This document shows, one piece after another, positions 9,809-46,954 of a stretch of DNA of 64,000 nucleotides. Position numbers and translations under genes: made by a program. Origin of the DNA: a virus. The stretch lies in IMG/VR virus record IMGVR_UViG_3300035670_000014, positions 96,001-160,000 of that record. One strand, written 5' to 3'. How positions within the stretch are numbered: the stretch's first letter is position 1; each line of letters starts with the position of its first letter. The notes under the pieces were generated by a model. That model did no database searches, was not told the origin of the DNA, and saw only the letters and a program-made list of their open reading frames with translations.

Positions 9809-10402
9809 TTAAGGAAGGTTAGCGAAGTAATTAATTGCAGAATCTATAAGATCAGATGTAATACCGGTCTTATAGTTACTGTGTATTAATTGATTGCCAA
9901 ATACCAGACATTCGTCGTCATCGTCAATAACGATGTAGTTTCCAGTATAGTTGCAATAGCTAACCCAGTCCTTAATTTCTTCACTCCTGACAAAGAAACT
10001 ACCTTCGTTTCTTTGTTTGGTTCTAGAAATAATAGAACCAGTAAAACCTTGTAATTTAAGGTATTCTATAGTTCCGTAATAATTAGATCTCCATGTACTT
10101 GAGAGTACATATCTAATATCGGGATAAGTAGAATGAAGTCTATTTAGAATACTAACAAGATCAGGAAAAATACCAGGGTATTTGTCGTCTTGATTGGCGT
10201 TAAAACTACAGGTCCAATTGAGGGCATCTAGATTACTGCCCTCAAAGTTAAGGACACCATCTATGTCAAGAAAAACTAACCTGGTTATTTTAGCCAGGTT
10301 AGGTTTATTTAAGTAATCATCTGAATCATAGAAATTAAGTGGCATTTGAAAATGCCGACAATAATTTATCTCTGATAAATGACTAGAAGATGAATTAGTC
10401 AT
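9809..10402 (-). CDS. HAD-family phosphatase (Swiss Army Knife RNA-repair-like HAD)
   Basis: FLDIDGVLN, VLSSTWR, R.EEI..W, YIVIDDD. Confidence 0.85.
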   Translation of the reverse strand: MTNSSSSHLSEINYCRHFQMPLNFYDSDDYLNKPNLAKITRLVFLDIDGVLNFEGSNLDALNWTCSFNANQDDKYPGIFPDLVSILNRLHSTYPDIRYVLSSTWRSNYYGTIEYLKLQGFTGSIISRTKQRNEGSFFVRSEEIKDWVSYCNYTGNYIVIDDDDECLVFGNQLIHSNYKTGITSDLIDSAINYFANLP

Positions 10403-10676: not shown

Positions 10677-10852
10677 ATGTTACTGGATATTGTTCTTTCT
10701 CAGTATTCATTGAATGACTTAAATAGGGGTAATGTCGTAATAAAGACACAAAACCCATGTTGAGTTTCGTTTATAATTTACTTGTATCGGATATAAAAGG
10801 CAAGTAAAGATAAACCAAAAGAAAGAAGGTGAAACCTTCTAGGTTTCACCTT

Positions 10853-11743
10853 TTAGAAAGCATACCTTATCCTGCAATAGGGGATGTACTCTTGTATTAC
10901 AGATTTAAAATTAGAAACACTTTTAGCCTTTAAATCGTATTTATAGCAAATAACATCAGGCTTGTTGTATTTAGTTTGTTGACTCTTAGGATTCCAAAGG
11001 AATGATTCTCCCTTTGGGTTCCATACTTCGTTGATCTTATGAAGCTGCTCACTATGGGTGAGCATTATGACTTCACAAGCAAGTTGATCTTTGGCCTTCT
11101 GAGATAAAGTTGAATCAATAAGCTGGAAAAGCTTAATCCAGTCCTGCCTGGCACCAGGATAAAGAATCACCGGACTAAAGTTCAAGTGAACTTCATAGCC
11201 GGCATCAACAAGTTGATTGATTGCATTTATTCTTGCTGATATTTGACTAGTCCTGATGTCAACATATTGGGATATAGATTGAGGCATAAGGCTATACCTT
11301 ATCCTTACCCTATCCCCAGGATCAAAAGCCAGTAGAGGGGCAATATTGACCGTTTTAGTAGCAAAGCTAACCTTAGCATTCTCGCTGTGCTTAACAGCTT
11401 CCATTATTTCCAGTGGAATGTTGGAAATCATAAGGTCAAGGCTTACATCATTGTTATTACCAATGTCATAAGTCCAATACTTGGAATCACACTGATTAGG
11501 TTCAAGCTTAGGACCCAAAGAGTTAGAATGAGAAATTATAGAATCTATAACATCATCTGTATTAACAAATATAGTAACAGGATTAGAACCACCCTTTCTA
11601 CGAGCCGTATAACAGTTGTGAGTTAGAATATTTTCAGCAAAATAATTTTCATAAACAGGAACATGGAAATTATAAACAGTCGTATTTTTTTCAATTTTCT
11701 TTATACTTTGAATTTTAGAAAACTTAGGAGTTTTAAGTTGCAT
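10853..11743 (-). CDS. Split intein C-fragment (43 aa, 11743-11615) fused to the C-terminal part of spore photoproduct lyase
   Basis: VYNFHV..ENYFAENILTHN/C intein end, then CYTARRK, SFATK, RIRYSLMP, GYEVHLNFSPVI. Confidence 0.9.
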   Translation of the reverse strand: MQLKTPKFSKIQSIKKIEKNTTVYNFHVPVYENYFAENILTHNCYTARRKGGSNPVTIFVNTDDVIDSIISHSNSLGPKLEPNQCDSKYWTYDIGNNNDVSLDLMISNIPLEIMEAVKHSENAKVSFATKTVNIAPLLAFDPGDRVRIRYSLMPQSISQYVDIRTSQISARINAINQLVDAGYEVHLNFSPVILYPGARQDWIKLFQLIDSTLSQKAKDQLACEVIMLTHSEQLHKINEVWNPKGESFLWNPKSQQTKYNKPDVICYKYDLKAKSVSNFKSVIQEYIPYCRIRYAF

Positions 11744-12574
11744 AACTGTTCTGTTTGTGGAAAGTTTACTAATAAAAAATGCTGTGAAGAAAAAGTATTC
11801 CTAGAGAAAGGTTTAGTATTTAACTATCACAGTGAAGCTGCAAGATATTTTAATGTAGATTCAAGATATGCAAAAAGAAAACTCTATAATGTAAACTATA
11901 CTTTAAGTGAAATAAAAATAACAAAAAACAGCAAACTAGTTAATTGTAAAATTTGCAATCAATCATCAATAACTTCAAAATGTAGAGCTGGATATTGTAA
12001 AAATTGCTCTCGTAAAGGATTAGGTAAGAAAACTAGAGGAATAGAATTAAGAAATAAATACCTTGGAGAGAAAAATCCAAACTTTAAAGATGGTAAAGCA
12101 AGGCAGTCGATAAGAAACAGACATGAATGGAAAGAAATAAGAAAAGAAATTCTTTCAGAAAGACAATGCTGTGAAGTAAGTGGACATAGTAAATACTTAC
12201 ATCTTCATCATATATTGCCAGTTTGCTTATTTCCACAATATTCATTAGAAAAATGGAACATTATTGTTCTTCAGGCTAATCTACACATAGAAGTTCATCG
12301 TCAAGATTTAGATATTGTGCTTCTACCCAACCTCTGTTCTTTGTATAAAGAGGATGTTCACCTGATACGCGAAGAGTTCGTCCGTCAACTGAAATTTCAT
12401 AAATTTCACTTACTTGACGAGATGCCAAATGAAAAGCTTGAGCTACTAAAGGAGAACCAGAATTGGTATCGTAAGAAATTACATCTGATCCCGATAGAAT
12501 TTGTTCTACAGGAATTTGGCCACTTGGAGTGGATATCAAAGTTCCTTCTTCCACGCAGTAGAGGCAAGAACTAA
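11663..12574 (+). CDS. HNH homing endonuclease with Zn-finger and NUMOD-like segments, antisense to the SPL gene
   Basis: CKIC, CKNC, GEKNPNFKDG, CEVSG...HLHHILP...NIIVL..NLH.EVH. Confidence 0.85.
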   Translation: MEIINSRIFFNFLYTLNFRKLRSFKLHNCSVCGKFTNKKCCEEKVFLEKGLVFNYHSEAARYFNVDSRYAKRKLYNVNYTLSEIKITKNSKLVNCKICNQSSITSKCRAGYCKNCSRKGLGKKTRGIELRNKYLGEKNPNFKDGKARQSIRNRHEWKEIRKEILSERQCCEVSGHSKYLHLHHILPVCLFPQYSLEKWNIIVLQANLHIEVHRQDLDIVLLPNLCSLYKEDVHLIREEFVRQLKFHKFHLLDEMPNEKLELLKENQNWYRKKLHLIPIEFVLQEFGHLEWISKFLLPRSRGKN

Positions 12575-12866
12575 AACAGCCGTTTGCATGAGACGGCGGA
12601 ATAAAATCAGTTGACCTTCCAGAATCAGTCATTGCCATATTAGACATACGACCAATAACAAGAACATGTCTTTTATTTGCTATCCAATCTACAGGATCGG
12701 CCTTAGCTAAATCTGGAATAAGCCAGTGATTCTTAACATATTTAACTTCATAGTTAGAGCCAGAATCTGCAAGCTTTTGACAGATTGATGTGATTCTAGA
12801 TATTTCCTTTTCACTATAATTACAATTCTGTATATAAAGAGTATTTATATCACTCAGTTTAATCAC
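12276..12866 (-). CDS. Spore photoproduct lyase N-terminal part fused to split intein N-fragment (93 aa, 12557-12279)
   Basis: GRSTDFIPPSHANGCFSSCLY/CVEEGTLISTPSG...SGEHPLY...WVEAQYLNLDDEL; likely GTG start at 12866 after a GGGGA RBS. Confidence 0.9.
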   Translation of the reverse strand: MIKLSDINTLYIQNCNYSEKEISRITSICQKLADSGSNYEVKYVKNHWLIPDLAKADPVDWIANKRHVLVIGRMSNMAMTDSGRSTDFIPPSHANGCFSSCLYCVEEGTLISTPSGQIPVEQILSGSDVISYDTNSGSPLVAQAFHLASRQVSEIYEISVDGRTLRVSGEHPLYTKNRGWVEAQYLNLDDELLCVD

Positions 12867-12916
12867 TAGGTCCCCTTGGTTGGTATTAAGAAAAGGCCCC
12901 AAGGGGCCAGATAGAG

Positions 12917-13465
12917 TTAAGACTGATACTCAGCAAGTAAATTCCTTACACGCTGAATTTCTTCTAGTGTATGAGGAGTACCTGTAGCGTTGATTCGTAG
13001 GTATAACATTAGCCGATCTGCAGGACTTAGGTCAACATACATAATCTTAACTTCCGTCTTGCGATATAGCTGTCGAATGTCCTTATCATCAAACTCATGT
13101 ACATAAATGTTCTCGCCGGTAGTCGGTTCGATTGCCGGGATGTTACCAAGCATCCAATGGTACAGCGAAAAGAGCCGATGTTGCCCATCAATGATCTCCA
13201 TATGATCATCGTAGATGTTTCGATTGATCCAGCATGGAGGACAGAATCCTCCAGTAATCATACTTCCGACAAAAGCACTAGCTTGATATACAGTCCAAGT
13301 ATGATTTCGTTGATAGTCAGGGACTACCCACTTTCGATTAGGATCATCTGGACTACCTGCAAATCCCTTTTGTATCTCAAACAAGTTAGCATGCGACTCA
13401 ACAACAAAAGGCAATGGTTTAAAGATAGAATCAAATGATCTTTTGATTAGAGTTGAAGCTGTCAT
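12917..13465 (-). CDS. DUF262/ParB-like domain protein
   Basis: PDYQRNHTW, IIDGQHRL, YLRINATGTP. Confidence 0.85.
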   Translation of the reverse strand: MTASTLIKRSFDSIFKPLPFVVESHANLFEIQKGFAGSPDDPNRKWVVPDYQRNHTWTVYQASAFVGSMITGGFCPPCWINRNIYDDHMEIIDGQHRLFSLYHWMLGNIPAIEPTTGENIYVHEFDDKDIRQLYRKTEVKIMYVDLSPADRLMLYLRINATGTPHTLEEIQRVRNLLAEYQS

Positions 13466-39125: not shown

Positions 39126-42100
39126 TTATTCCTTGAAGAACTTCTCCACGTACTTCTTGGCCGCAAGCTTGACTTTTGGCAGATTTGCAACCTTACACAG
39201 AAGCTGGCCAAGGTGATTCTCACCTTTACCCTTACACTTACCCCAGAAGGTATCACCCCAGTGGTTATTTTCCACAGGAGTAACTTTGCCGCCCGAAGTT
39301 GCAGCGTAAAGGCGAAAAGCCAAATACATTCCTTCTGGAGTATCTGCTTGGTCAGCAAACTTAGACTCCAGGATGCAGTACATGACATCTAACCTTAAAG
39401 CCTCCCAGGTTGCCATTGCATCAGGTGAAGAAGGCTTAAAGTCCTTAGCCTTCTTCTTTGCCGTGTACCCGTTGTCAGTAGGAAGAATAGTGTTTTCTTC
39501 TTGATTGAGAATATTACACTTAATCCACTGATACAAGGTCTCACTTGAGGCAAAGACAACACCATCTGCCACTACGGAGCACGGATACATGTTAGACATA
39601 AACTCAAAGTCCTTAGACTTAAAGTTATCAGTCTCACTGATTACCAGTTGTCCATAGTGGCTCTTTCGAGCTGAAGGCTCGTGCTCGGTCGACTTATTTG
39701 CCAGCTTCAACAAGATGTCACCGTGACACTTCTTGGGTGCACACCAGCACACTAAGTCCTTGCCTTTCAATTCATGCAAAGATTTCATGAGTTCTGGTTG
39801 TTGTACTACCCAGTCAGCGTACTTCTCCACAGCTTCGTCTCGCGTCTGACACTTCCACTTGGCTGATGTTTCAGCCTGGTGGCTAAATGGATTACCCCAC
39901 TTAGTAGGGCGTCCAATGTAGACTGCGGTTTCGGGAGCCGTGTTGGCATGCTTGTTGTGCACCACTGGCAAGCCAGGAGGAGTCGGAGGCGTGTCATTAA
40001 CAACACCAACCAAAGACACATGACGAGCATTCTTCTTGCCCAAGGCAAGATACTTGTCATAGGTGTCCTTAACACCTCCAATTGGTCCGTTCTCCCCAAA
40101 GGTAAAGGCAATCAAGAAGTCCGAATCTTCCGCAATCAGAGTATTGCGATCAAACAGGCCCTTGATCTCTCCACTCTGGAAAGTTACCTGGTGCCGCTCA
40201 TCCCGAGGATCATTCCAGTAGGTATTAACCATTGCCTGGATGTCCTCAAGAGACCAGGACTGGCTTTCGCCGTCAGTCATGGCAAGGCTAAACTGCCGGT
40301 GATACTTATTCATGGCATCACCTGCGTCGTTTGCCTCTTTGACAGTAAAGGCATTATTCTCAAACTCAGCACCAAGGTGCAAAGTAAGAGCTTCAACCTC
40401 TGCGCCCATGAGGAGGGATATTGCAACATGGTCAGACCAAGCCGCACCTCCACTGACAAGACGAATCGCCTCGGCACCAGTTGCAGCCTTAATTGCTGCA
40501 ACAGCCTTCTTGGTGCGCTCAACCATGAACAAGAAATGTTCTTTGGTCAAGTTCTCACCGCGGCCAGCGGTGCCAATAACACCCAGAGTCACCGTCTTCT
40601 CAGGCAAACGGTAGTAGCCGTCGATGTCCTCGGTGCGATTATCGCCATCGCCGTCAAAAGTGACGACATAACGACTCTCATCGTTCCCAAGGAAGCTGAT
40701 ACCAGAGTAACCAGCTGCCTTCACTCGTGTGAAGAAGGCGTTGCTGTTGTCCCCTGGATTCAGCAGGTCGAACGGCTTACCAGTCTCCCGGTAGTGCTCA
40801 GACCGCAGCTGCTCGTAGGCCGCCCTTCCATCCTTGGACAGTCTAACCAAGAAGTTGGTAAGGTCAACCTTACGGGAGTCAATCTGACTTCCATAGGTCT
40901 TTGCCTCCTCCTTGTCCTCGGTCCAGTACTGGAATTCACGTCCATCGCTCCTACCATGAAGACCCTGATAGACAGTGACCTCAGCAGCAACTTCTGGTTC
41001 GACTTCTACTTCTGCTGGCCCTGGCTCAGGATCAGAGCCACTACAGAAGTCAAGAGACAGCTGATAGCGGTAGGAGTGACAGCCACTTCCATCTTCATCT
41101 CCGTAGAACCAGAACAAAAGAGGCTCTGAGAAATGGTGCAGGAAGTGCTCCATGAAAGCTTCATCCATGTCCCCTTGTTCCTCGAAGTACCCTACCTCAA
41201 TGTAGAGGCCAGTATAGCCTCTCTTCTTGAGGTACAGGAAGAATTCACCATCAGACTTCAGGTCCTCAATGAAGTCTTCACGAGTCTGCAGTGACTTAAC
41301 ATCAAGGCAGTACTCGATGTGGATCTTGAGGAGCTGACGAAGGCTGCTGGGCGACTCAATGACCAGCATAGCCGACCTATCAAAGACTCTATAGTCTCCG
41401 ACGCCTGCCATGGAAGCTTGACTAGCAAGCCAGGTCGAGAAGTCCTCTTCCTCTTCCTCATCCCCCTCGTAGTACTTAGACGCAAGGATAAGGTTTGGAT
41501 CAGGATCTGTAAATGGATGCCTATAAGTAGGCACTTCCACTTCAGGTTCCGCCTTCACCTCAGTCTTGATCTCGACTACCTCAGACTCGACAACCTCAGG
41601 CTTAGCCTCGACAACTTCAGCCTCGATCACCTCACTGTAAGTGAAGTCCTCGACTGCCACATCTTCGAGACCATCGAAGTCGTAGTTGTCGAAGTCCACA
41701 TCAGTGTGATAGCCGATGGGGCCTGAGGTGTAGTCCACCTGCTCAACCGAAGGAGCGAACTCCGACAGGTCCAGCTTGCCGAGAGGAGAAACCTCGCCCT
41801 CAAATGCAACCGTGACCTTAAAGGTCGGGTGCAGAACCTGCACCGCTGGGTTGCTTGCCTTGGTATTCCCGGTCACATCAGTTTCGATGCTGATGACACG
41901 GTACTTGTCAAGGCCCTTGTGGGAGATAAACTCCTCAAGCAGCTCGGGGGTGACGACCTTCGTGTCTTTGAAGAAATCCCTGAAGGCCGTGTTGATCAAG
42001 GTTGTAGCACCCCTCTCAACCCTCAGCTTGCCAAGGAAATTCTCACCCTTGGTCTTGAGGATTCCACCACGCAGAACGTCACTCAGAAGCTGACCAACAA

Positions 42101-45100
42101 CCTCAGAGTTGATCTGAGAAGCAACCTCAGAATCAAGCACGAAGGCATCGCCAAACTCTGACTTCCGCTTGACCATCGGGGTCTTGATGTCAAGTCCCAA
42201 CTCAGCCACGTCAGGCCCCTTGCCATTGATGAAGGCAAAGTAGGCCTTCCCGAAGTCCTTATACTCGTCGTTAAACGAGAAACCAAGGACAACGGTGCTC
42301 TGAGGAGCGGAAGCGCCCAGGACATTCAGGGCCTTGAGCGAGTAGACCCAAGGACCCTCAGGCAGGCCGTCAGCAGACATGACCGGCGTCCCGTCCTCAT
42401 TCAGGTAGTTGCCCACATACAGAGTGTGGATGGGCAGCTTGTCAACCTGAATTGAACCGAAGCTCCGGCGGCCGCTCTTGATGAACTGCTCGCAGGAAAG
42501 CGCCCGCTCAGGATTGGCCTGGTCAGTCTTGAACGCGTTCGCACGCTTGACCAGCTGGAGGAAGGTCCAGAGGGCAAAGCGCAGCTTGCCAGACTCATTC
42601 CAGGCATGCCACTCCTTGAGCCAGGCCTGCTCGACAGCTGCCCTTGCACGGATTCGGCTCTTCTTGTCAAGAGGAAGAGCTTCAACCTGGGCAATCTTGT
42701 CGAATCGACCCCTGTTCAAGCGAGAGCAGAAGTCTGCAAAACCTGCAATCTCTGCCTCGTGGGTGCCAAGGGCAGCCTCAAGCTGAAGCCAGGGTGACTC
42801 CTCAAGAGTCTGCTCGACCTGCTCGAAGGCGATCCGCAACACGGAATCCTTGTACTTCTCGAACAAGTCAAAGACCCATGAAGTAGCACGCTCAACCTTC
42901 ACGTTCTTGAACGCAAAGTGCAGTGCCTTGATGCCCTGACCGGTCGCAGCATCACCCTCCTGAAGGAGCTGACTCTGCCCAGCAAAAGGAGCCGCAAAGG
43001 CCGCAATGCCACGCTTCATCAGCCAGCCAGGGAAGTAGAACTTCATCTGGCTTGCAGGCAGCATGTGCATGCTGTACGAGACGGTAGTTTCACCCTCGTA
43101 CTTTTCGACCTTCTTGCTCGGGTCGCCGAACAGAGCAAGGCCCATGTACATGGAAACAGACCAGATCATCTGCATGACCTTTACTGCCTCCGGCACATTC
43201 TGACCCTGAGTGTCGGCGTCGATGACGTTCGACAGCATCTCTGACATGGTCAGCAAGATGAGGTCGAGGTAGGTCAAGGACTTCCACTCACCGTTCGGGT
43301 CAAGGCCATCAGACTCAATTACTGACCTGACGTTTGCCCTGAGGTTAAACTTGTCACCAAAGTGAACAAGCCCCTGCATGATGGCACCCATCAGCATCTG
43401 CACGTTAGCTGCAGTACCAGTGGTGCCCTTCATGTTCTCCAGTGCAAAGATTGCACTGTCGACCCTCTCCAGAGGAGAGCTGAACACCCGGAGGTTGCCG
43501 CTCGTGTCAAGTGCACCCTCGGTGAAGTACCTCTCGGCAAACTGCAGCTTCGCCATGTTCATGATGAACGCAGTCAAGCCGACTGGGATAGTCGAAGGGG
43601 GAAGCTTGGCATTCGTTTTACCTTCTGCCTGCTTCCTATTCCTCCGCTCCTCAGCCTTCAGGTGAGCGTTGTTCAGCTCCTTGAGGACGAAGTCGTTGGC
43701 TGCCCTGTCTCCAACAAGGTCACGAACCAAAGCCTCGTCGTCTCCGCCAAAGCCAAAGGAGTACCAGCCTTTGAAGTCAAAGCGGGTATCCAGTGCCATG
43801 TGCCGGAACTGACCGACCTGAGAGTTCAGGAAGTCAAGAGCCACCTTCCTCTTCTCCTCGCCGGGAGTCATGGCAATAATGGCCTGCTTCTTGCGCTCCT
43901 GGAAGCGGATGCAAGACTTGGCCAAGTCGCCGTGAATCTCCGCCATCCGGTCGTCAAGGTCTGCACCGTCCTGTGCCTTGAAGAAGATTTCAAAGGCCTC
44001 AGGAGTTGGCATGACCCAGCGGCACCCGACTGGCACCGAGTCCATTGGGACAAGGATACCCCATGCTCCCGACTTGAAAGTCGAAGGGTTCCGGTAATAG
44101 AACACCAACGGGGAGCCATGCAGACCCATGATCCGGTTGTAATCTGCAGTGTTGCAGAAAATAACCCGGTTGTAATCATAGGTCAAGCCAAGTGGCTTGA
44201 GGTGATTCTCGACCAGAGACTTAATCTGCTCCTCAGATACTGCATTCTTATATGCAGACCAAAGAGCCTTCGTCTCGTCCTTGACGTTGAGCTTCATCAC
44301 CTCAGCTACGGCCTCAAACATCAGGCCAGGGTGCACCTGCGGATACACCGACTCAGCGATCTTGGTATACACCATCTCGCCGTTGGCGTTTGGCATCTTC
44401 AATGCCAAGGGCAGTCGGGTCCTTGCAGGGTCCATTGCCTGATTGGTGAGCTGGTTCATGATTGGCGCTACCAGCTGAGGCAGAGGAATGCCGTTCCCAA
44501 TCACCTTAGCAGTCCCACCGAGGACCTCCTTGAGGCGGCTCGCAGCGAGGAGTGCGTCAGCAACGCCTTCAGGCTCTGACTCATCCCCATCCATGAGGTC
44601 GGTGAAGATCTCAGAGTCAAGCTCTGACATTTCGTTCTTCACTCTCAGGTTGGAGAGAATCTCCTCAAGGCGGGTCGTTGCATCCTCTTCAATCTTCTTG
44701 AAGATGTCAATGACCGCCGGATCCCTCAGGTCAAACCCGTTGATCAGGCTCTGAGTGTCAGTGCAGACACCCTTACGAGCCTTCGGGACACCCGAGTTCA
44801 GGATGATCGTAGCTCGATCATCTGACCAGGTGGGGCAGATTTCACCCTTTGACCCGTAGGCAATCATGTCCTTCCCAGTAGCCTTCATGAACTCTGGAGA
44901 CATGATGTGGAAGCCACCCTTCACCATGAAGTTGGTGAAGTAGGCTCGGCCAATGAGGATCTTCCCATCGAGCTTGCCTGCCTTGAGGTCAGCCAGATAG
45001 TCCTGAGGCAGCACGAGAGCCATGAGGCGGCGAGAGACAAACACCACGCCGTCATAGATCTCATCGGCAAGCATTGCTGCCTTAGCCTTCTCGAACAGGC

Positions 45101-46136
45101 TGTCACCGTTAACTGGCTTGACGACCAGGACAGAGTCCTTAAGAGCATTAAGCTTGAAGGTCTGCCCTTCCAGCTTGTAGCTCTTATTGAACTCAACGAC
45201 CTTGCCACGGAGCAAGTTCGGCGCAAAGTACTGAGAAATGTACTTCTGCGCCTTCGCTGCAGCCTGCACCTGCTTCGCCGGTGAGCCGTCCTCTTTGACC
45301 TTCACTCCATAGACGCAAGAAGCAAGCTTCATTGCTTCGTCGTCAGTTGCCTTAGACAAGGCATCATTGGTCAAGTTGAGGAACAAGCAGGTGGGGTTGA
45401 CATCGGGAGTCTTATCAATTCCCTTGTCGCTCTCCTCCCAGGTCTCCCCAGCGGCCTCAGCTGCCTTCCGCTTCAACTCCCTGAGCTGCTTCTTCTCAGC
45501 CTTCTTGGAGGCCTCGATTCGTCGCTCATAGAGTGAGTCCATCGAGTCTTTGCTGAGAGCATTGACCAGAGAGGTCCTGGCAGCAACCTCGACCTGCTCG
45601 GACCCATAGTTGGTCTGAATCAGGTTGAGTGTTGCCCATGCCTGAGCAAGCTCGCCCGCAGTCAGGTGGCGCAGGTCGCCGTGCTTCTTCAGACAGTCAA
45701 GCGCTCGCTTGACCGTGAAGTAGAAGTCAATGCTTGCGCCTGAGCTTGGAGCCCGGTGCAGGTGATGCAAAGACTTCTGCCAGACATTGACGTCGCCAGG
45801 CTTCACGTTAAACGGCTTAAAGCCGTAAAACTTCTCAAAAGCGGCCATGATTTCTGCCGTCTTCTGAGCATACGGTGCCATGGAGTCAACGTGGACCTTG
45901 TAGGCCACCTTGGCATCTTTCTCGTCAAATCCTGGCCAGTTGAAAAGCTCAGGAGACGTCAGGTTGAGTCCAACCTTATGCCCAAGCAGAACACGGATCA
46001 TTGCCACTGCCGCAGGCAATACGAGGGACTTGTAGTCTTCCTCGTTGCAGCGGATAGCCTCGATGTTCTCAGACTTCAGCGTCTTGAAGAGTTCGAGTGC
46101 CTGGTCATTGGCTACTTCTACTTTCACTTCGCTCAT
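39126..46136 (-). CDS. Two-barrel single-chain RNA polymerase (YonO/QDE-1-like) fused to ART-like, SLOG, DUF4326 and NADAR domains
   Basis: YDGVVFVSRRL, GR...VKG, YRNP, DGADLDD, TGTAAN, SNVIDADTQG; C-terminal GRPTKWGNPF/CWCAPKKCHGD and SN.Y..ENNHWGDTFWG..GENHLG; AGGAGG RBS before ATG 46136. Confidence 0.75.
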   Translation of the reverse strand: MSEVKVEVANDQALELFKTLKSENIEAIRCNEEDYKSLVLPAAVAMIRVLLGHKVGLNLTSPELFNWPGFDEKDAKVAYKVHVDSMAPYAQKTAEIMAAFEKFYGFKPFNVKPGDVNVWQKSLHHLHRAPSSGASIDFYFTVKRALDCLKKHGDLRHLTAGELAQAWATLNLIQTNYGSEQVEVAARTSLVNALSKDSMDSLYERRIEASKKAEKKQLRELKRKAAEAAGETWEESDKGIDKTPDVNPTCLFLNLTNDALSKATDDEAMKLASCVYGVKVKEDGSPAKQVQAAAKAQKYISQYFAPNLLRGKVVEFNKSYKLEGQTFKLNALKDSVLVVKPVNGDSLFEKAKAAMLADEIYDGVVFVSRRLMALVLPQDYLADLKAGKLDGKILIGRAYFTNFMVKGGFHIMSPEFMKATGKDMIAYGSKGEICPTWSDDRATIILNSGVPKARKGVCTDTQSLINGFDLRDPAVIDIFKKIEEDATTRLEEILSNLRVKNEMSELDSEIFTDLMDGDESEPEGVADALLAASRLKEVLGGTAKVIGNGIPLPQLVAPIMNQLTNQAMDPARTRLPLALKMPNANGEMVYTKIAESVYPQVHPGLMFEAVAEVMKLNVKDETKALWSAYKNAVSEEQIKSLVENHLKPLGLTYDYNRVIFCNTADYNRIMGLHGSPLVFYYRNPSTFKSGAWGILVPMDSVPVGCRWVMPTPEAFEIFFKAQDGADLDDRMAEIHGDLAKSCIRFQERKKQAIIAMTPGEEKRKVALDFLNSQVGQFRHMALDTRFDFKGWYSFGFGGDDEALVRDLVGDRAANDFVLKELNNAHLKAEERRNRKQAEGKTNAKLPPSTIPVGLTAFIMNMAKLQFAERYFTEGALDTSGNLRVFSSPLERVDSAIFALENMKGTTGTAANVQMLMGAIMQGLVHFGDKFNLRANVRSVIESDGLDPNGEWKSLTYLDLILLTMSEMLSNVIDADTQGQNVPEAVKVMQMIWSVSMYMGLALFGDPSKKVEKYEGETTVSYSMHMLPASQMKFYFPGWLMKRGIAAFAAPFAGQSQLLQEGDAATGQGIKALHFAFKNVKVERATSWVFDLFEKYKDSVLRIAFEQVEQTLEESPWLQLEAALGTHEAEIAGFADFCSRLNRGRFDKIAQVEALPLDKKSRIRARAAVEQAWLKEWHAWNESGKLRFALWTFLQLVKRANAFKTDQANPERALSCEQFIKSGRRSFGSIQVDKLPIHTLYVGNYLNEDGTPVMSADGLPEGPWVYSLKALNVLGASAPQSTVVLGFSFNDEYKDFGKAYFAFINGKGPDVAELGLDIKTPMVKRKSEFGDAFVLDSEVASQINSEVVGQLLSDVLRGGILKTKGENFLGKLRVERGATTLINTAFRDFFKDTKVVTPELLEEFISHKGLDKYRVISIETDVTGNTKASNPAVQVLHPTFKVTVAFEGEVSPLGKLDLSEFAPSVEQVDYTSGPIGYHTDVDFDNYDFDGLEDVAVEDFTYSEVIEAEVVEAKPEVVESEVVEIKTEVKAEPEVEVPTYRHPFTDPDPNLILASKYYEGDEEEEEDFSTWLASQASMAGVGDYRVFDRSAMLVIESPSSLRQLLKIHIEYCLDVKSLQTREDFIEDLKSDGEFFLYLKKRGYTGLYIEVGYFEEQGDMDEAFMEHFLHHFSEPLLFWFYGDEDGSGCHSYRYQLSLDFCSGSDPEPGPAEVEVEPEVAAEVTVYQGLHGRSDGREFQYWTEDKEEAKTYGSQIDSRKVDLTNFLVRLSKDGRAAYEQLRSEHYRETGKPFDLLNPGDNSNAFFTRVKAAGYSGISFLGNDESRYVVTFDGDGDNRTEDIDGYYRLPEKTVTLGVIGTAGRGENLTKEHFLFMVERTKKAVAAIKAATGAEAIRLVSGGAAWSDHVAISLLMGAEVEALTLHLGAEFENNAFTVKEANDAGDAMNKYHRQFSLAMTDGESQSWSLEDIQAMVNTYWNDPRDERHQVTFQSGEIKGLFDRNTLIAEDSDFLIAFTFGENGPIGGVKDTYDKYLALGKKNARHVSLVGVVNDTPPTPPGLPVVHNKHANTAPETAVYIGRPTKWGNPFSHQAETSAKWKCQTRDEAVEKYADWVVQQPELMKSLHELKGKDLVCWCAPKKCHGDILLKLANKSTEHEPSARKSHYGQLVISETDNFKSKDFEFMSNMYPCSVVADGVVFASSETLYQWIKCNILNQEENTILPTDNGYTAKKKAKDFKPSSPDAMATWEALRLDVMYCILESKFADQADTPEGMYLAFRLYAATSGGKVTPVENNHWGDTFWGKCKGKGENHLGQLLCKVANLPKVKLAAKKYVEKFFKE

Positions 46137-46219
46137 GAGACCCTCCTGGTCTACGTGGGGTTGGTTCCCCTGGTCATTTGCATCCGGCAGACTATCTGCC
46201 TTTTGCACAGTAATAATTG

Positions 46220-46954
46220 TCATGACTTGGCCTTAGGCTCGGCTAAGCAGGGTGACTGCAAACCCTCCGAAGGAGGGTCGGGCCATGCTTGCTCTGTATC
46301 CAGAGCAAGGTAAGCAGCCTCGGCAGCTGCCTGCTCCTCAAGCTGGCAGTCGTGCATCCACTGGTCGAACATTGCCTGAGACCAAGCAAGCTCGTCATCA
46401 TCAGTGAAGTGCCTAGACCTGTCCGCTGCAGCAGGTACTTGCTCGACCCACTTCTCCAAAGCTCGTTCCAGTTCCCATCGCTGGAATTCCAGGTTTGGCC
46501 AGTCATTGCCAAGGAACAGGGAACAGCCCATGGCCGAGGGCAAGCTGGCCATAGAGAAGACCTCAGCCTCCTCCTCAACATGCCACTGATCGTAGCTGTT
46601 AATGGCTTGAGCCCAGCGGATTCGGACCCCGCAGCTCAGAACCTGCCCTTTTTCCTGAGCCTGAGCCCACTCGATCTGCTCTCGCAGCTCCGAGTAGTAC
46701 TCATCCCAGTCGTGCATGGTAGCGTAAGATACGCCACCCACTGCAACCTCAGTGTTGAGGCTGTAGAAGTGCGAATCCTGACGCAACATCTCTGCCGCGA
46801 CCTCGGCTGCTTCCTCAGTAGTTTCCCACTGAGCAAGGAGATCAGGGCACTCGTCCGCCTTACTGGCCTTGAACTTACCCACAATCATAGAGATCATAAG
46901 CTTAAAGTATTTCATTTTATTACCCTCGTGTTGTTTGGTTTGCTGGTTGAGCAA
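46220..46954 (-). CDS. acidic hypothetical protein
   Basis: ORF; likely start MKYFK at 46915 after GAGG. Confidence 0.6.
   Translation of the reverse strand: MLNQQTKQHEGNKMKYFKLMISMIVGKFKASKADECPDLLAQWETTEEAAEVAAEMLRQDSHFYSLNTEVAVGGVSYATMHDWDEYYSELREQIEWAQAQEKGQVLSCGVRIRWAQAINSYDQWHVEEEAEVFSMASLPSAMGCSLFLGNDWPNLEFQRWELERALEKWVEQVPAAADRSRHFTDDDELAWSQAMFDQWMHDCQLEEQAAAEAAYLALDTEQAWPDPPSEGLQSPCLAEPKAKS

Follow-up and report, generated by a model that had tools for sequence, protein, structure and literature searches.

How an enzyme can be made from a phage gene that is broken within its iron-sulfur (Fe-S) cluster motif, and how the DNA of the break can also encode a nuclease on the opposite strand, are the questions raised by a locus in the IMG/VR phage record IMGVR_UViG_3300035670_000014. 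The window analysed is a stretch of 64,000 nucleotides (nt), bases 96001–160000 of this 170,948-bp record, which has direct terminal repeats and is estimated to be complete. A phage gene of the spore photoproduct lyase (SPL) family of radical S-adenosylmethionine (SAM) proteins is fractured there by a split intein directly before the third Cys of its cluster motif. The interpretation favored here, with a probability of roughly 0.8, is that a 943-bp mobile cassette consisting of a split intein and an antisense HNH gene resides in the SPL-family gene, with trans-splicing and homing as its predicted activities.

The halves are two separate genes, with a stop codon after the N-terminal intein half (IntN) and a start codon before the C-terminal half (IntC), and the insertion is in frame relative to intein-free alleles. 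An earlier note, made from the sequence alone, had described an N-gene with a 93 amino acid (aa) IntN and a C-gene with a 43-aa IntC, and had assigned the role of +1 nucleophile to the third Fe-S ligand of CxxxCxxC. Open reading frames together with Pfam and NCBIfam matches bear out this gene anatomy (Table 1). In silico splicing yields a 356-aa product with the motif C-FSS-C-LY-C (C-x3-C-x2-C) restored. This product is colinear with its three closest homologues, L003, L004 and L005, which are intein-free, share the same long N-terminal form and are 44%–48% identical to it; there is zero gap at the junction (GRSTDFIAPSHSNGCALSCAYCYVGRRKG). L004 in turn aligns to the SPL of G. thermodenitrificans (4FHC, E-value = 5e-17) with the CxxxCxxC motifs superposed. 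Because of the gap-free spliced alignment and the superposed motifs, the intein is placed exactly before the third cluster Cys, and the predicted +1 nucleophile is thus an Fe-S ligand, as had been proposed. The first two motif residues, Cys-7 and Cys-3 (numbered relative to the intein), are in the N-extein.

Relatives of the C-half are encoded in 284 viral stretches, mostly as contiguous proteins of ~290–350 aa with the pattern GRS(T/S)D(F/Y)I.PSF..GC...C.YCY..R. Intein-free SPL alleles, which the earlier note had suggested looking for, are thus available as homologues, and also as contigs of a near-identical gene (see below). Contiguous versions of the C-half that would include an intein (>518 aa) were looked for and none was found, which is weak evidence. 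Chance is excluded as an explanation of the layout, since about 40 independent viral contigs have a homologous intein at the same codon and intein-free alleles exist.

Both gene halves match the Pfam family SPL (PF20903; C-half E-value = 7e-20) and the NCBIfam model TIGR03886, "spore photoproduct lyase family protein". Scored singly against TIGR03886, the halves give 318 bits (C-half) and 61 bits, where the cut-off of 437.55 applies to a full-length match; the intein-free L004, which is 46% identical, gives 492 bits. The threshold of the SP-lyase equivalog TIGR04070 (400 bits) is reached neither by the C-half (72 bits) nor by L004 (123 bits). The host is accordingly classed by these models as a TIGR03886 SPL-family radical-SAM protein and not as a proven spore photoproduct (SP) lyase. 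The name "spore photoproduct lyase" in the earlier note therefore holds for the family and does not extend to SP lyase proper.

The Intein_splicing/Hint models of Pfam match the junction-proximal parts of both genes, and TIGR01445 (intein_Nterm) matches IntN with an E-value of 1.8e-4. Cys1 and T10-P11-x-G13 of block A are invariant in 20 sequences. In block B the window has S-G-E-H where relatives have T-G/A-E-H, and E67-H68-P69 are invariant in the same 20 sequences. Block G (L-T-H-N, with H42 and N43 of IntC) and the +1 C are invariant in 19 sequences. The best solved matches of IntN are a bacterial intein-like (BIL) domain (2LWY, E-value = 1e-8) and then the NrdJ-1 split intein (8UBS, E-value = 1.7e-6); solved relatives are thus only distant, and the description of a candidate new split intein stands. 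A predicted complex of IntN with IntC, the latter carrying +10 extein residues, has an ipSAE of 0.71, compared with 0.00 for the best of three controls. The mark used for ipSAE is reached by 58 of 80 solved complexes and by 2 of 110 mismatched pairs. Three runs share at least 90% of contacts, and the partner pLDDT is 70–71. Because split inteins have solved complexes, the model's pass may reflect likeness to these and not binding. The sequence features point to a naturally split class-1-type intein with a split site like that of NrdJ-1 and gp41-1, which would act by trans-splicing.

The sole long open reading frame in the gap between the halves is on the plus strand at 11663–12574. Its product begins with Cys-rich fingers and has a NUMOD3-like box (GxxNPNF) as well as an HH...N...H...H motif, in which H157, H158, N174, H183 and H187 are invariant. 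PHROG HNH/homing-endonuclease families 12434, 144 and 655 match the protein with E-values from 1.5e-8 to 1.4e-6. Among its distant relatives, in which Pfam recognises HNH/HNH_2 and NUMOD domains, are NUMOD3-HNH endonucleases and HNH domains nested in ThyX inteins. An AlphaFold model built from a 20-sequence alignment has a mean pLDDT of 65 and is confident for residues ~130–225, which comprise the HNH core together with the tail's first helices. When the window is compared with L129, a 10.5-kb metagenome contig of a near-identical phage, substitutions in the HNH core are position-3-dominant (49:26:13). The plus-strand gene is therefore likely to encode an HNH (beta-beta-alpha-Me) homing-type endonuclease, with cleavage and homing as predicted functions. 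The earlier note's "intervening free-standing endonuclease" is correct as to an associated homing-type gene; the gene is on the opposite strand, however, and overlaps the entire IntN coding region.

The probable start of the HNH gene is TTG at position 11738. It has an AGGAG 7 nt upstream, is kept in L129, aligns to the ATG of all relatives, and abuts the start codon of the C-gene back to back (TTG|CAT). A start at ATG 11663, by which 81 nt of IntC would be overprinted, was rejected. That ATG is GTG in L129, and the TTG is the codon that has the AGGAG and the alignment with the relatives' ATG. The IntC pattern is normal and position-3-dominant (diversity, pi, of 0.243 vs. 0.061), and IntC mismatches between the window and L129 fall five times at position 3, three times at position 1 and never at position 2.

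Viral contigs were searched with both gene halves and with alignments of HNH and of IntN as queries. About 40 distinct contigs share the layout, i.e. an SPL-family gene split at the same Cys, IntN, an antisense HNH gene and IntC. In all of them IntN ends in a stop codon and IntC begins with ATG; the HNH open reading frame is ~273 aa, antisense and open across IntN, and IntC begins at the HNH start. The lineages are a large "group 2" with a short host form of ~290 aa, L083/L107, L104, L130, and that of the window. Identities of the window to group 2 are ~46% for IntN, ~58% for IntC, 32% for the HNH core, ~43% for the HNH tail and 37%–39% for the exteins. An exhaustive search with the HNH profile gave 28 clusters (50% identity) at E-values of 1e-30 or less, mostly over nearly the full profile. 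In L130 (2369–4206) a third cassette lineage is in a more distant SPL-like gene with the motif C-LGG-C-MKSY-C (C-x3-C-x4-C), and the antisense HNH gene there overlaps IntN by 251 nt.

In the window the overlap spans IntN in full together with its stop codon and extends over the final 17 nt of the N-extein, the HNH stop codon (12572–12574) being 15–17 nt beyond the IntN start. On the HNH side it takes in the last 99 codons (residues ~180–278), including catalytic H183 and H187. In the register of the two frames codon position 1 faces 1, 2 faces 3 and 3 faces 2; because 2 faces 3, the wobble site of either frame is the second position of the other. When synonymous codons of IntN are resampled, 5.3 stops are expected in the HNH frame; none is observed in the window (P = 0.00055). 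The same resampling gives P values of ~0.001 or less in L008, L011, L017 and L083, even when the stop codons of the HNH gene itself are included in the count. The two other antisense frames across IntN have 5–7 stops.

Codon-position diversity was computed over 27 unique group-2 elements. Outside the overlap, position-3 pi is 0.456 in the first eight codons of IntN (8/8 sites variable), 0.243 in IntC (26/39) and 0.283 in the HNH core (140/183). Inside the overlap it is 0.067 for IntN (20/89) and 0.112 for the HNH tail (30/89). The IntN count differs from that of the non-overlapped intein codons (34/47) with a Fisher P of 3e-8, and the HNH tail differs from the core with P = 2e-11. At positions 1 and 2 there is no change in diversity (P = 1.0). 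Wobble-site diversity thus falls in both frames, only inside the overlap, and the suppression is present in all four quarters of it. The 17 differences between the window and L129 in the overlap likewise show no position-3 excess. These patterns indicate that both frames of the overlap are under purifying selection.

Table 1. Features of the fractured SPL-family locus; positions are those of the window.
Feature	Positions	Strand	Remarks
N-gene (N-extein + IntN), 196 aa	12276..12866	-	GTG start at 12866, TAG stop at 12276-12278; open reading frame and domain matches
N-extein, 103 aa	12558..12866	-	Ends C-FSS-C-LY (...GCFSSCLY); TIGR03886 positions 26-94
IntN, 93 aa	12279..12557	-	CVEEGT...ELLCVD-stop; Cys1, block A TPxG, block B S-G-E-H, conserved YTKNRGWVEAQYL..DDELL
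C-gene (IntC + C-extein), 296 aa	10853..11743	-	ATG start at 11743, stop at 10853; open reading frame and domain matches
IntC, 43 aa	11615..11743	-	MQLK...ILTHN; block G His-Asn invariant; block F Asn
C-extein, 253 aa	10856..11614	-	Begins CYTARRK; +1 Cys (11612-11614) is the third Cys of CxxxCxxC
Putative HNH homing-type endonuclease gene, 278 aa	11738..12574	+	Probable TTG start, AGGAG at 11726-11730
Dual-coding overlap, 299 nt	12276..12574	both	HNH residues ~180-278 antisense to IntN
Entire element (IntC + HNH + IntN), evidently mobile, 943 bp	11615..12557		Missing from intein-free alleles in two metagenomes
Terminator-like strong hairpin	10826..10852	-	Directly after the C-gene
Terminator-like hairpin GGCCCC-TT-GGGGCC and T run	12895..12908	-	Ends the gene upstream of the N-gene

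Contigs from freshwater metagenomes of two studies (X4 and X5) join position 11614/11616 to 12571, skipping 954–956 nt with 11–13 substituted letters. These joins, whose far side is at about 12558–12571, represent intein-free alleles of a near-identical gene without the 943-bp element, and their boundaries coincide with the ends of the intein. The stronger case is X5, where a 635-nt contig (record 15) is ~98% identical over 131 + 395 nt and has junction letters equal to the L129 flank; the short side in X4 is 51 nt, and runs of X4–X7 were compared at 85% likeness. X4 also has an element-bearing variant, as do X6 and X7. Since intein-free alleles exist, the element is polymorphic for presence and absence and is evidently mobile.

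The flanks of L129 are 99.6% and 100% identical to those of the window. Identity is 97.4%–97.9% in the exteins, 93.8% in IntC, 94.0% in the overlap and 83.5% in the segment that encodes HNH only. All eight differences in the N-extein are within 25 nt of the junction, and three in the C-extein are within 9 nt of it. Among the 27 group-2 elements the opposite pattern is seen, the exteins (pi 0.2–0.3) being more diverged than the element. Because divergence is discordant in both comparisons, the element and the host gene have different histories. Two further observations concern the differences from L129. Ten of the 16 in the C-extein are clustered at 11018–11105, far from the junction, and may be a separate recombination patch. 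At 12558–12574, where the last HNH codons are in N-extein DNA, 7 of 10 bases differ from L129 and from the empty allele of X5 with a change of only one residue (L/I); these could be a co-conversion tract or a target-site change.

Fractured genes with split inteins and free-standing endonucleases were described in 2009 (Dassa et al., PMC2677866), and the locus is a fractured gene in that sense. As in those cases, a conserved phage enzyme is broken at a catalytic motif, the halves are adjacent, the split is between blocks B and F, and an endonuclease gene is present in the gap. The hosts described by Dassa et al. are gp41, NrdA/J, IMPDH, DnaE, ligase, terminase and one unknown, a list that includes no enzyme of the radical-SAM type; the endonucleases are GIY-YIG or Vsr-like only, HNH being predicted and unseen, and overlaps of 6–69 bp are between the C-terminal coding region of the endonuclease and the start of the downstream gene, the IntC half (PMC2677866). 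Here, by contrast, the nuclease is of the HNH type, is on the opposite strand, has a 299-nt antisense overlap with IntN, and has its start abutting that of IntC.

The intein resembles NrdJ-1 and gp41-1 in size (IntN ~90 aa, IntC ~40 aa) and in the motifs YTKNRG(W/Y)V...DDEL(L/V) and NxFFAN(D/G)IL(T/V)HN. The +1 residue of gp41-1 and NrdJ-1 is Ser; the window intein differs in its +1 Cys, in having Asn instead of Asp in block F, and in its extein context (C-x-Y / C-Y). The IntN profile recovered NrdJ-type split inteins in L170 and L171, to whose IntNs the window IntN is ~35% identical. In L170, L171 and L183, N-halves of NrdJ/ribonucleotide reductase (RNR) large subunits end in related split IntNs (YTKNRGYVEA..DDELL-stop) and have no long antisense open reading frame; these are fractured RNR genes of the Dassa type in IMG/VR contigs.

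The earlier note regarded a radical-SAM repair enzyme as an unusual intein host. This is not borne out, or goes too far, as regards contiguous inteins: SplB/COG1533 radical-SAM proteins have 48 inteins in Actinobacteria and are among the commonest bacterial intein hosts (PMC4760082). A further example is the NCBI model NF038136 (intein-containing Rv2578c family radical SAM), to which N-gene positions 96–181 align colinearly at model positions 68–155, a stretch that begins at the first Cys of the motif and reaches into the intein. With only 16.9 bits the match is weak; it would put the insertion point at this site or no more than one or two residues away. The Rv2578c/SplB inteins differ in being contiguous, bacterial and in a different radical-SAM family. 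A search of open-access literature gave nothing relevant on the Rv2578c intein. A third example is the viral B12-binding radical-SAM protein L187:1724-4249:+, in which a contiguous intein, itself containing a nested HNH, precedes the third Cys of GCKFGCNF|C. It shares with the window the third-Cys site, an HNH nuclease and a viral contig. It is unlike the window in that its HNH is nested in frame in a single, unsplit polypeptide that lacks antisense coding, and its intein is only 27% identical. The comparison suggests that inteins recur at the third cluster Cys in different radical-SAM families.

In the N-half precursor the sequence reads C-x3-C-x2-C1, so that Cys-3 and Cys1 form a C-x-x-C across the junction. 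In the intein-bearing MoaA of P. abyssi, too, an N-extein Cys belongs to the cluster motif. A disulfide between an N-extein Cys and Cys1 can block splicing in this oxygen-labile enzyme, a documented redox trap (Callahan et al. 2011, as reviewed in PMC10663303). The Cys-3/Cys1 pair of the window resembles this redox trap; unlike the window intein, that of MoaA is contiguous and archaeal, and redox control of the window intein is conjectural.

Inteins at this Cys of radical-SAM enzymes and fractured phage genes are thus already known. What appears to be new is the split form in an SPL-family host, the HNH type of nuclease and, above all, the selected antisense dual coding of ~300 nt. No paper on a split intein in a radical-SAM protein, or on an antisense or overlapping homing endonuclease with an intein, was found in the open-access literature.

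Several observations weigh against the favored interpretation. First, in the host protein an Asn is present at the position of the SPL H-donor Cys (GNNND in the window, GCNND in L004, AACTSD in 4FHC). It aligns with Cys140 of G. thermodenitrificans SPL, the H-atom donor; because of this replacement the enzyme may not use the H-atom-return chemistry of SPL, and its activity may differ from SP repair. (The motif WTYDIGNNNDVS, at C-extein positions 11450–11480, has this Asn in both the window and L129 and a Cys in most family members, as GCNND or SCNED.) Second, most class-1 inteins have Asp in block F, where an invariant Asn is found here (VYNFHV / VVNFSV), the correspondence to block F:4 being judged by visual comparison with the motifs of gp41-1 and NrdJ-1. 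Third, the HNH protein has no match in Pfam and NCBIfam. Its distal ~50 residues (227–278) are modelled at a pLDDT of 31–41, and Foldseek of the model gave no match at an E-value of 0.001 or less; the weak fold matches (E-value of 0.01 or more) are mostly HNH nucleases (Cap5, McrA and the Cas9 HNH). Fourth, wobble suppression could in principle reflect constraint at the nucleotide level and not selection on a second protein. Finally, a sigma-70 promoter scan was uninformative, with 8 matches vs. 9.9 expected (not above chance).

The alternative that survives best is that the antisense frame is unselected read-through, the functional HNH protein ending near residue ~200 and the tail being tolerated junk. 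Such a tail would account for the low pLDDT of its distal part and for its lack of a known domain, and distant HNH relatives do match only profile positions ~105–206. Yet none of the ~40 members has a closed frame, and its stop is always within a few codons of where IntN starts; the resampling is significant in each of five lineages, and the IntN wobble sites, which are the HNH second positions, are the least variable class throughout the overlap. More residues are invariant in the tail (62%) than in the core (50%), and the overlap begins inside the catalytic motif itself. Read-through is therefore improbable.

Slightly less probable still is that the intein halves merely dock the two polypeptides or that the gene is dead, i.e. 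that an HNH insertion has led to a non-covalent heterodimer, or to no function, with no splicing. The replacement of the block F Asp is in keeping with this, and Aeh1 nrdA, cited in PMC2677866, is a documented case of a phage gene split by an HNH insertion whose products assemble non-covalently. A mere docking module is made unlikely by the invariance of every splicing residue, i.e. C1, the block-B His, the penultimate His, the terminal Asn and the +1 Cys, in lineages that are ~45% identical. Furthermore, an unspliced product would hold ~136 extra residues inside the Fe-S binding loop, and the exteins of split alleles are still under purifying selection (position 3 >> position 2). An assembly artefact or inversion error in a truly contiguous intein with a nested HNH, of the kind present at the same radical-SAM Cys in L187, has a negligible probability, because the split antisense layout is found again in ~40 contigs that were assembled independently from many samples and is spanned by the 10.5-kb metagenome contig and by Logan contigs of three further studies.

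An active mobile cassette of split intein and antisense HNH gene would be expected to work as follows. The half-genes would be transcribed from the minus strand and translated separately; they are probably co-transcribed on one mRNA, since no terminator was seen between the N-gene and the C-gene. IntN and IntC would associate into a HINT fold. Cys1 would form a thioester, the +1 Cys (the third Fe-S ligand) would attack it, and Asn43 of IntC would cyclise, leaving a 356-aa enzyme with C-x3-C-x2-C intact. In co-infecting phages whose allele is free of the intein, the plus-strand HNH enzyme would cut close to the DNA that encodes CxxxCxxC, and repair of the cut allele would copy the cassette in (homing).

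The locus is AT-rich (~33%–36% GC), and an AAGGGG box precedes the GTG start of the N-gene. A blastn search of the locus against GenBank phages gave no match, and neither a second HNH gene copy nor another intein was found in a genome-wide search of the 171-kb genome. The next gene upstream (12917–13465, minus strand) encodes a GmrSD_N/DUF262 (ParB-like nuclease) domain (Pfam E-value = 2.6e-13) and is 100% identical in L129. The gene at 9809–10402, also on the minus strand, encodes a HAD domain of the type present in "Swiss Army Knife" RNA-repair proteins (PF18143, E-value = 5.5e-17). Elsewhere in the window, composition shifts sharply between 20000 and 50000 (GC 0.42–0.60 vs. ~0.35 in the flanks), a segment that includes a 2365-aa open reading frame (39126–46223, minus strand) and many shadow open reading frames. 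Six tRNA genes, two of them tRNA-Leu(UAA), are located at 13.8–30.9 kb.

A more speculative proposal, to which we would give low odds, is that the overprinting acts as a genetic interlock that guards the HNH gene from the decay usual after fixation and that splicing is in addition gated by redox state or Fe-S loading. The interlock is suggested by the fact that the HNH catalytic helix and the C-terminal ~95 residues share bases with IntN. If it is real, deletions and many of the mutations that disable the nuclease would inactivate the intein as well, and with it the host enzyme, and overprinting may then explain how a homing endonuclease resists degeneration. Gating is conceivable because the intein Cys1 replaces the third cluster Cys, giving the C(-3)-x-x-C1 pair; if it occurs, maturation of the enzyme would be conditional.

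With this locus, the known range of fractured genes comes to include radical-SAM hosts and nucleases of the HNH type, and it adds a candidate natural split-intein family with a Cys1/Cys+1 pair, comprising more than 25 nuclease clusters (50% identity) and ~40 viral loci. With its natural sequence variation, this family is a candidate orthogonal tool for trans-splicing. The conserved antisense coding of ~300 nt by a selfish nuclease and an intein appears to be a rare and cleanly testable case of overprinting, and the presence of Cys1 inside an Fe-S motif invites the question of redox- or cluster-gated splicing. As element-free, element-bearing and variant-element alleles coexist in freshwater phages, these populations may offer a natural system of intein homing.

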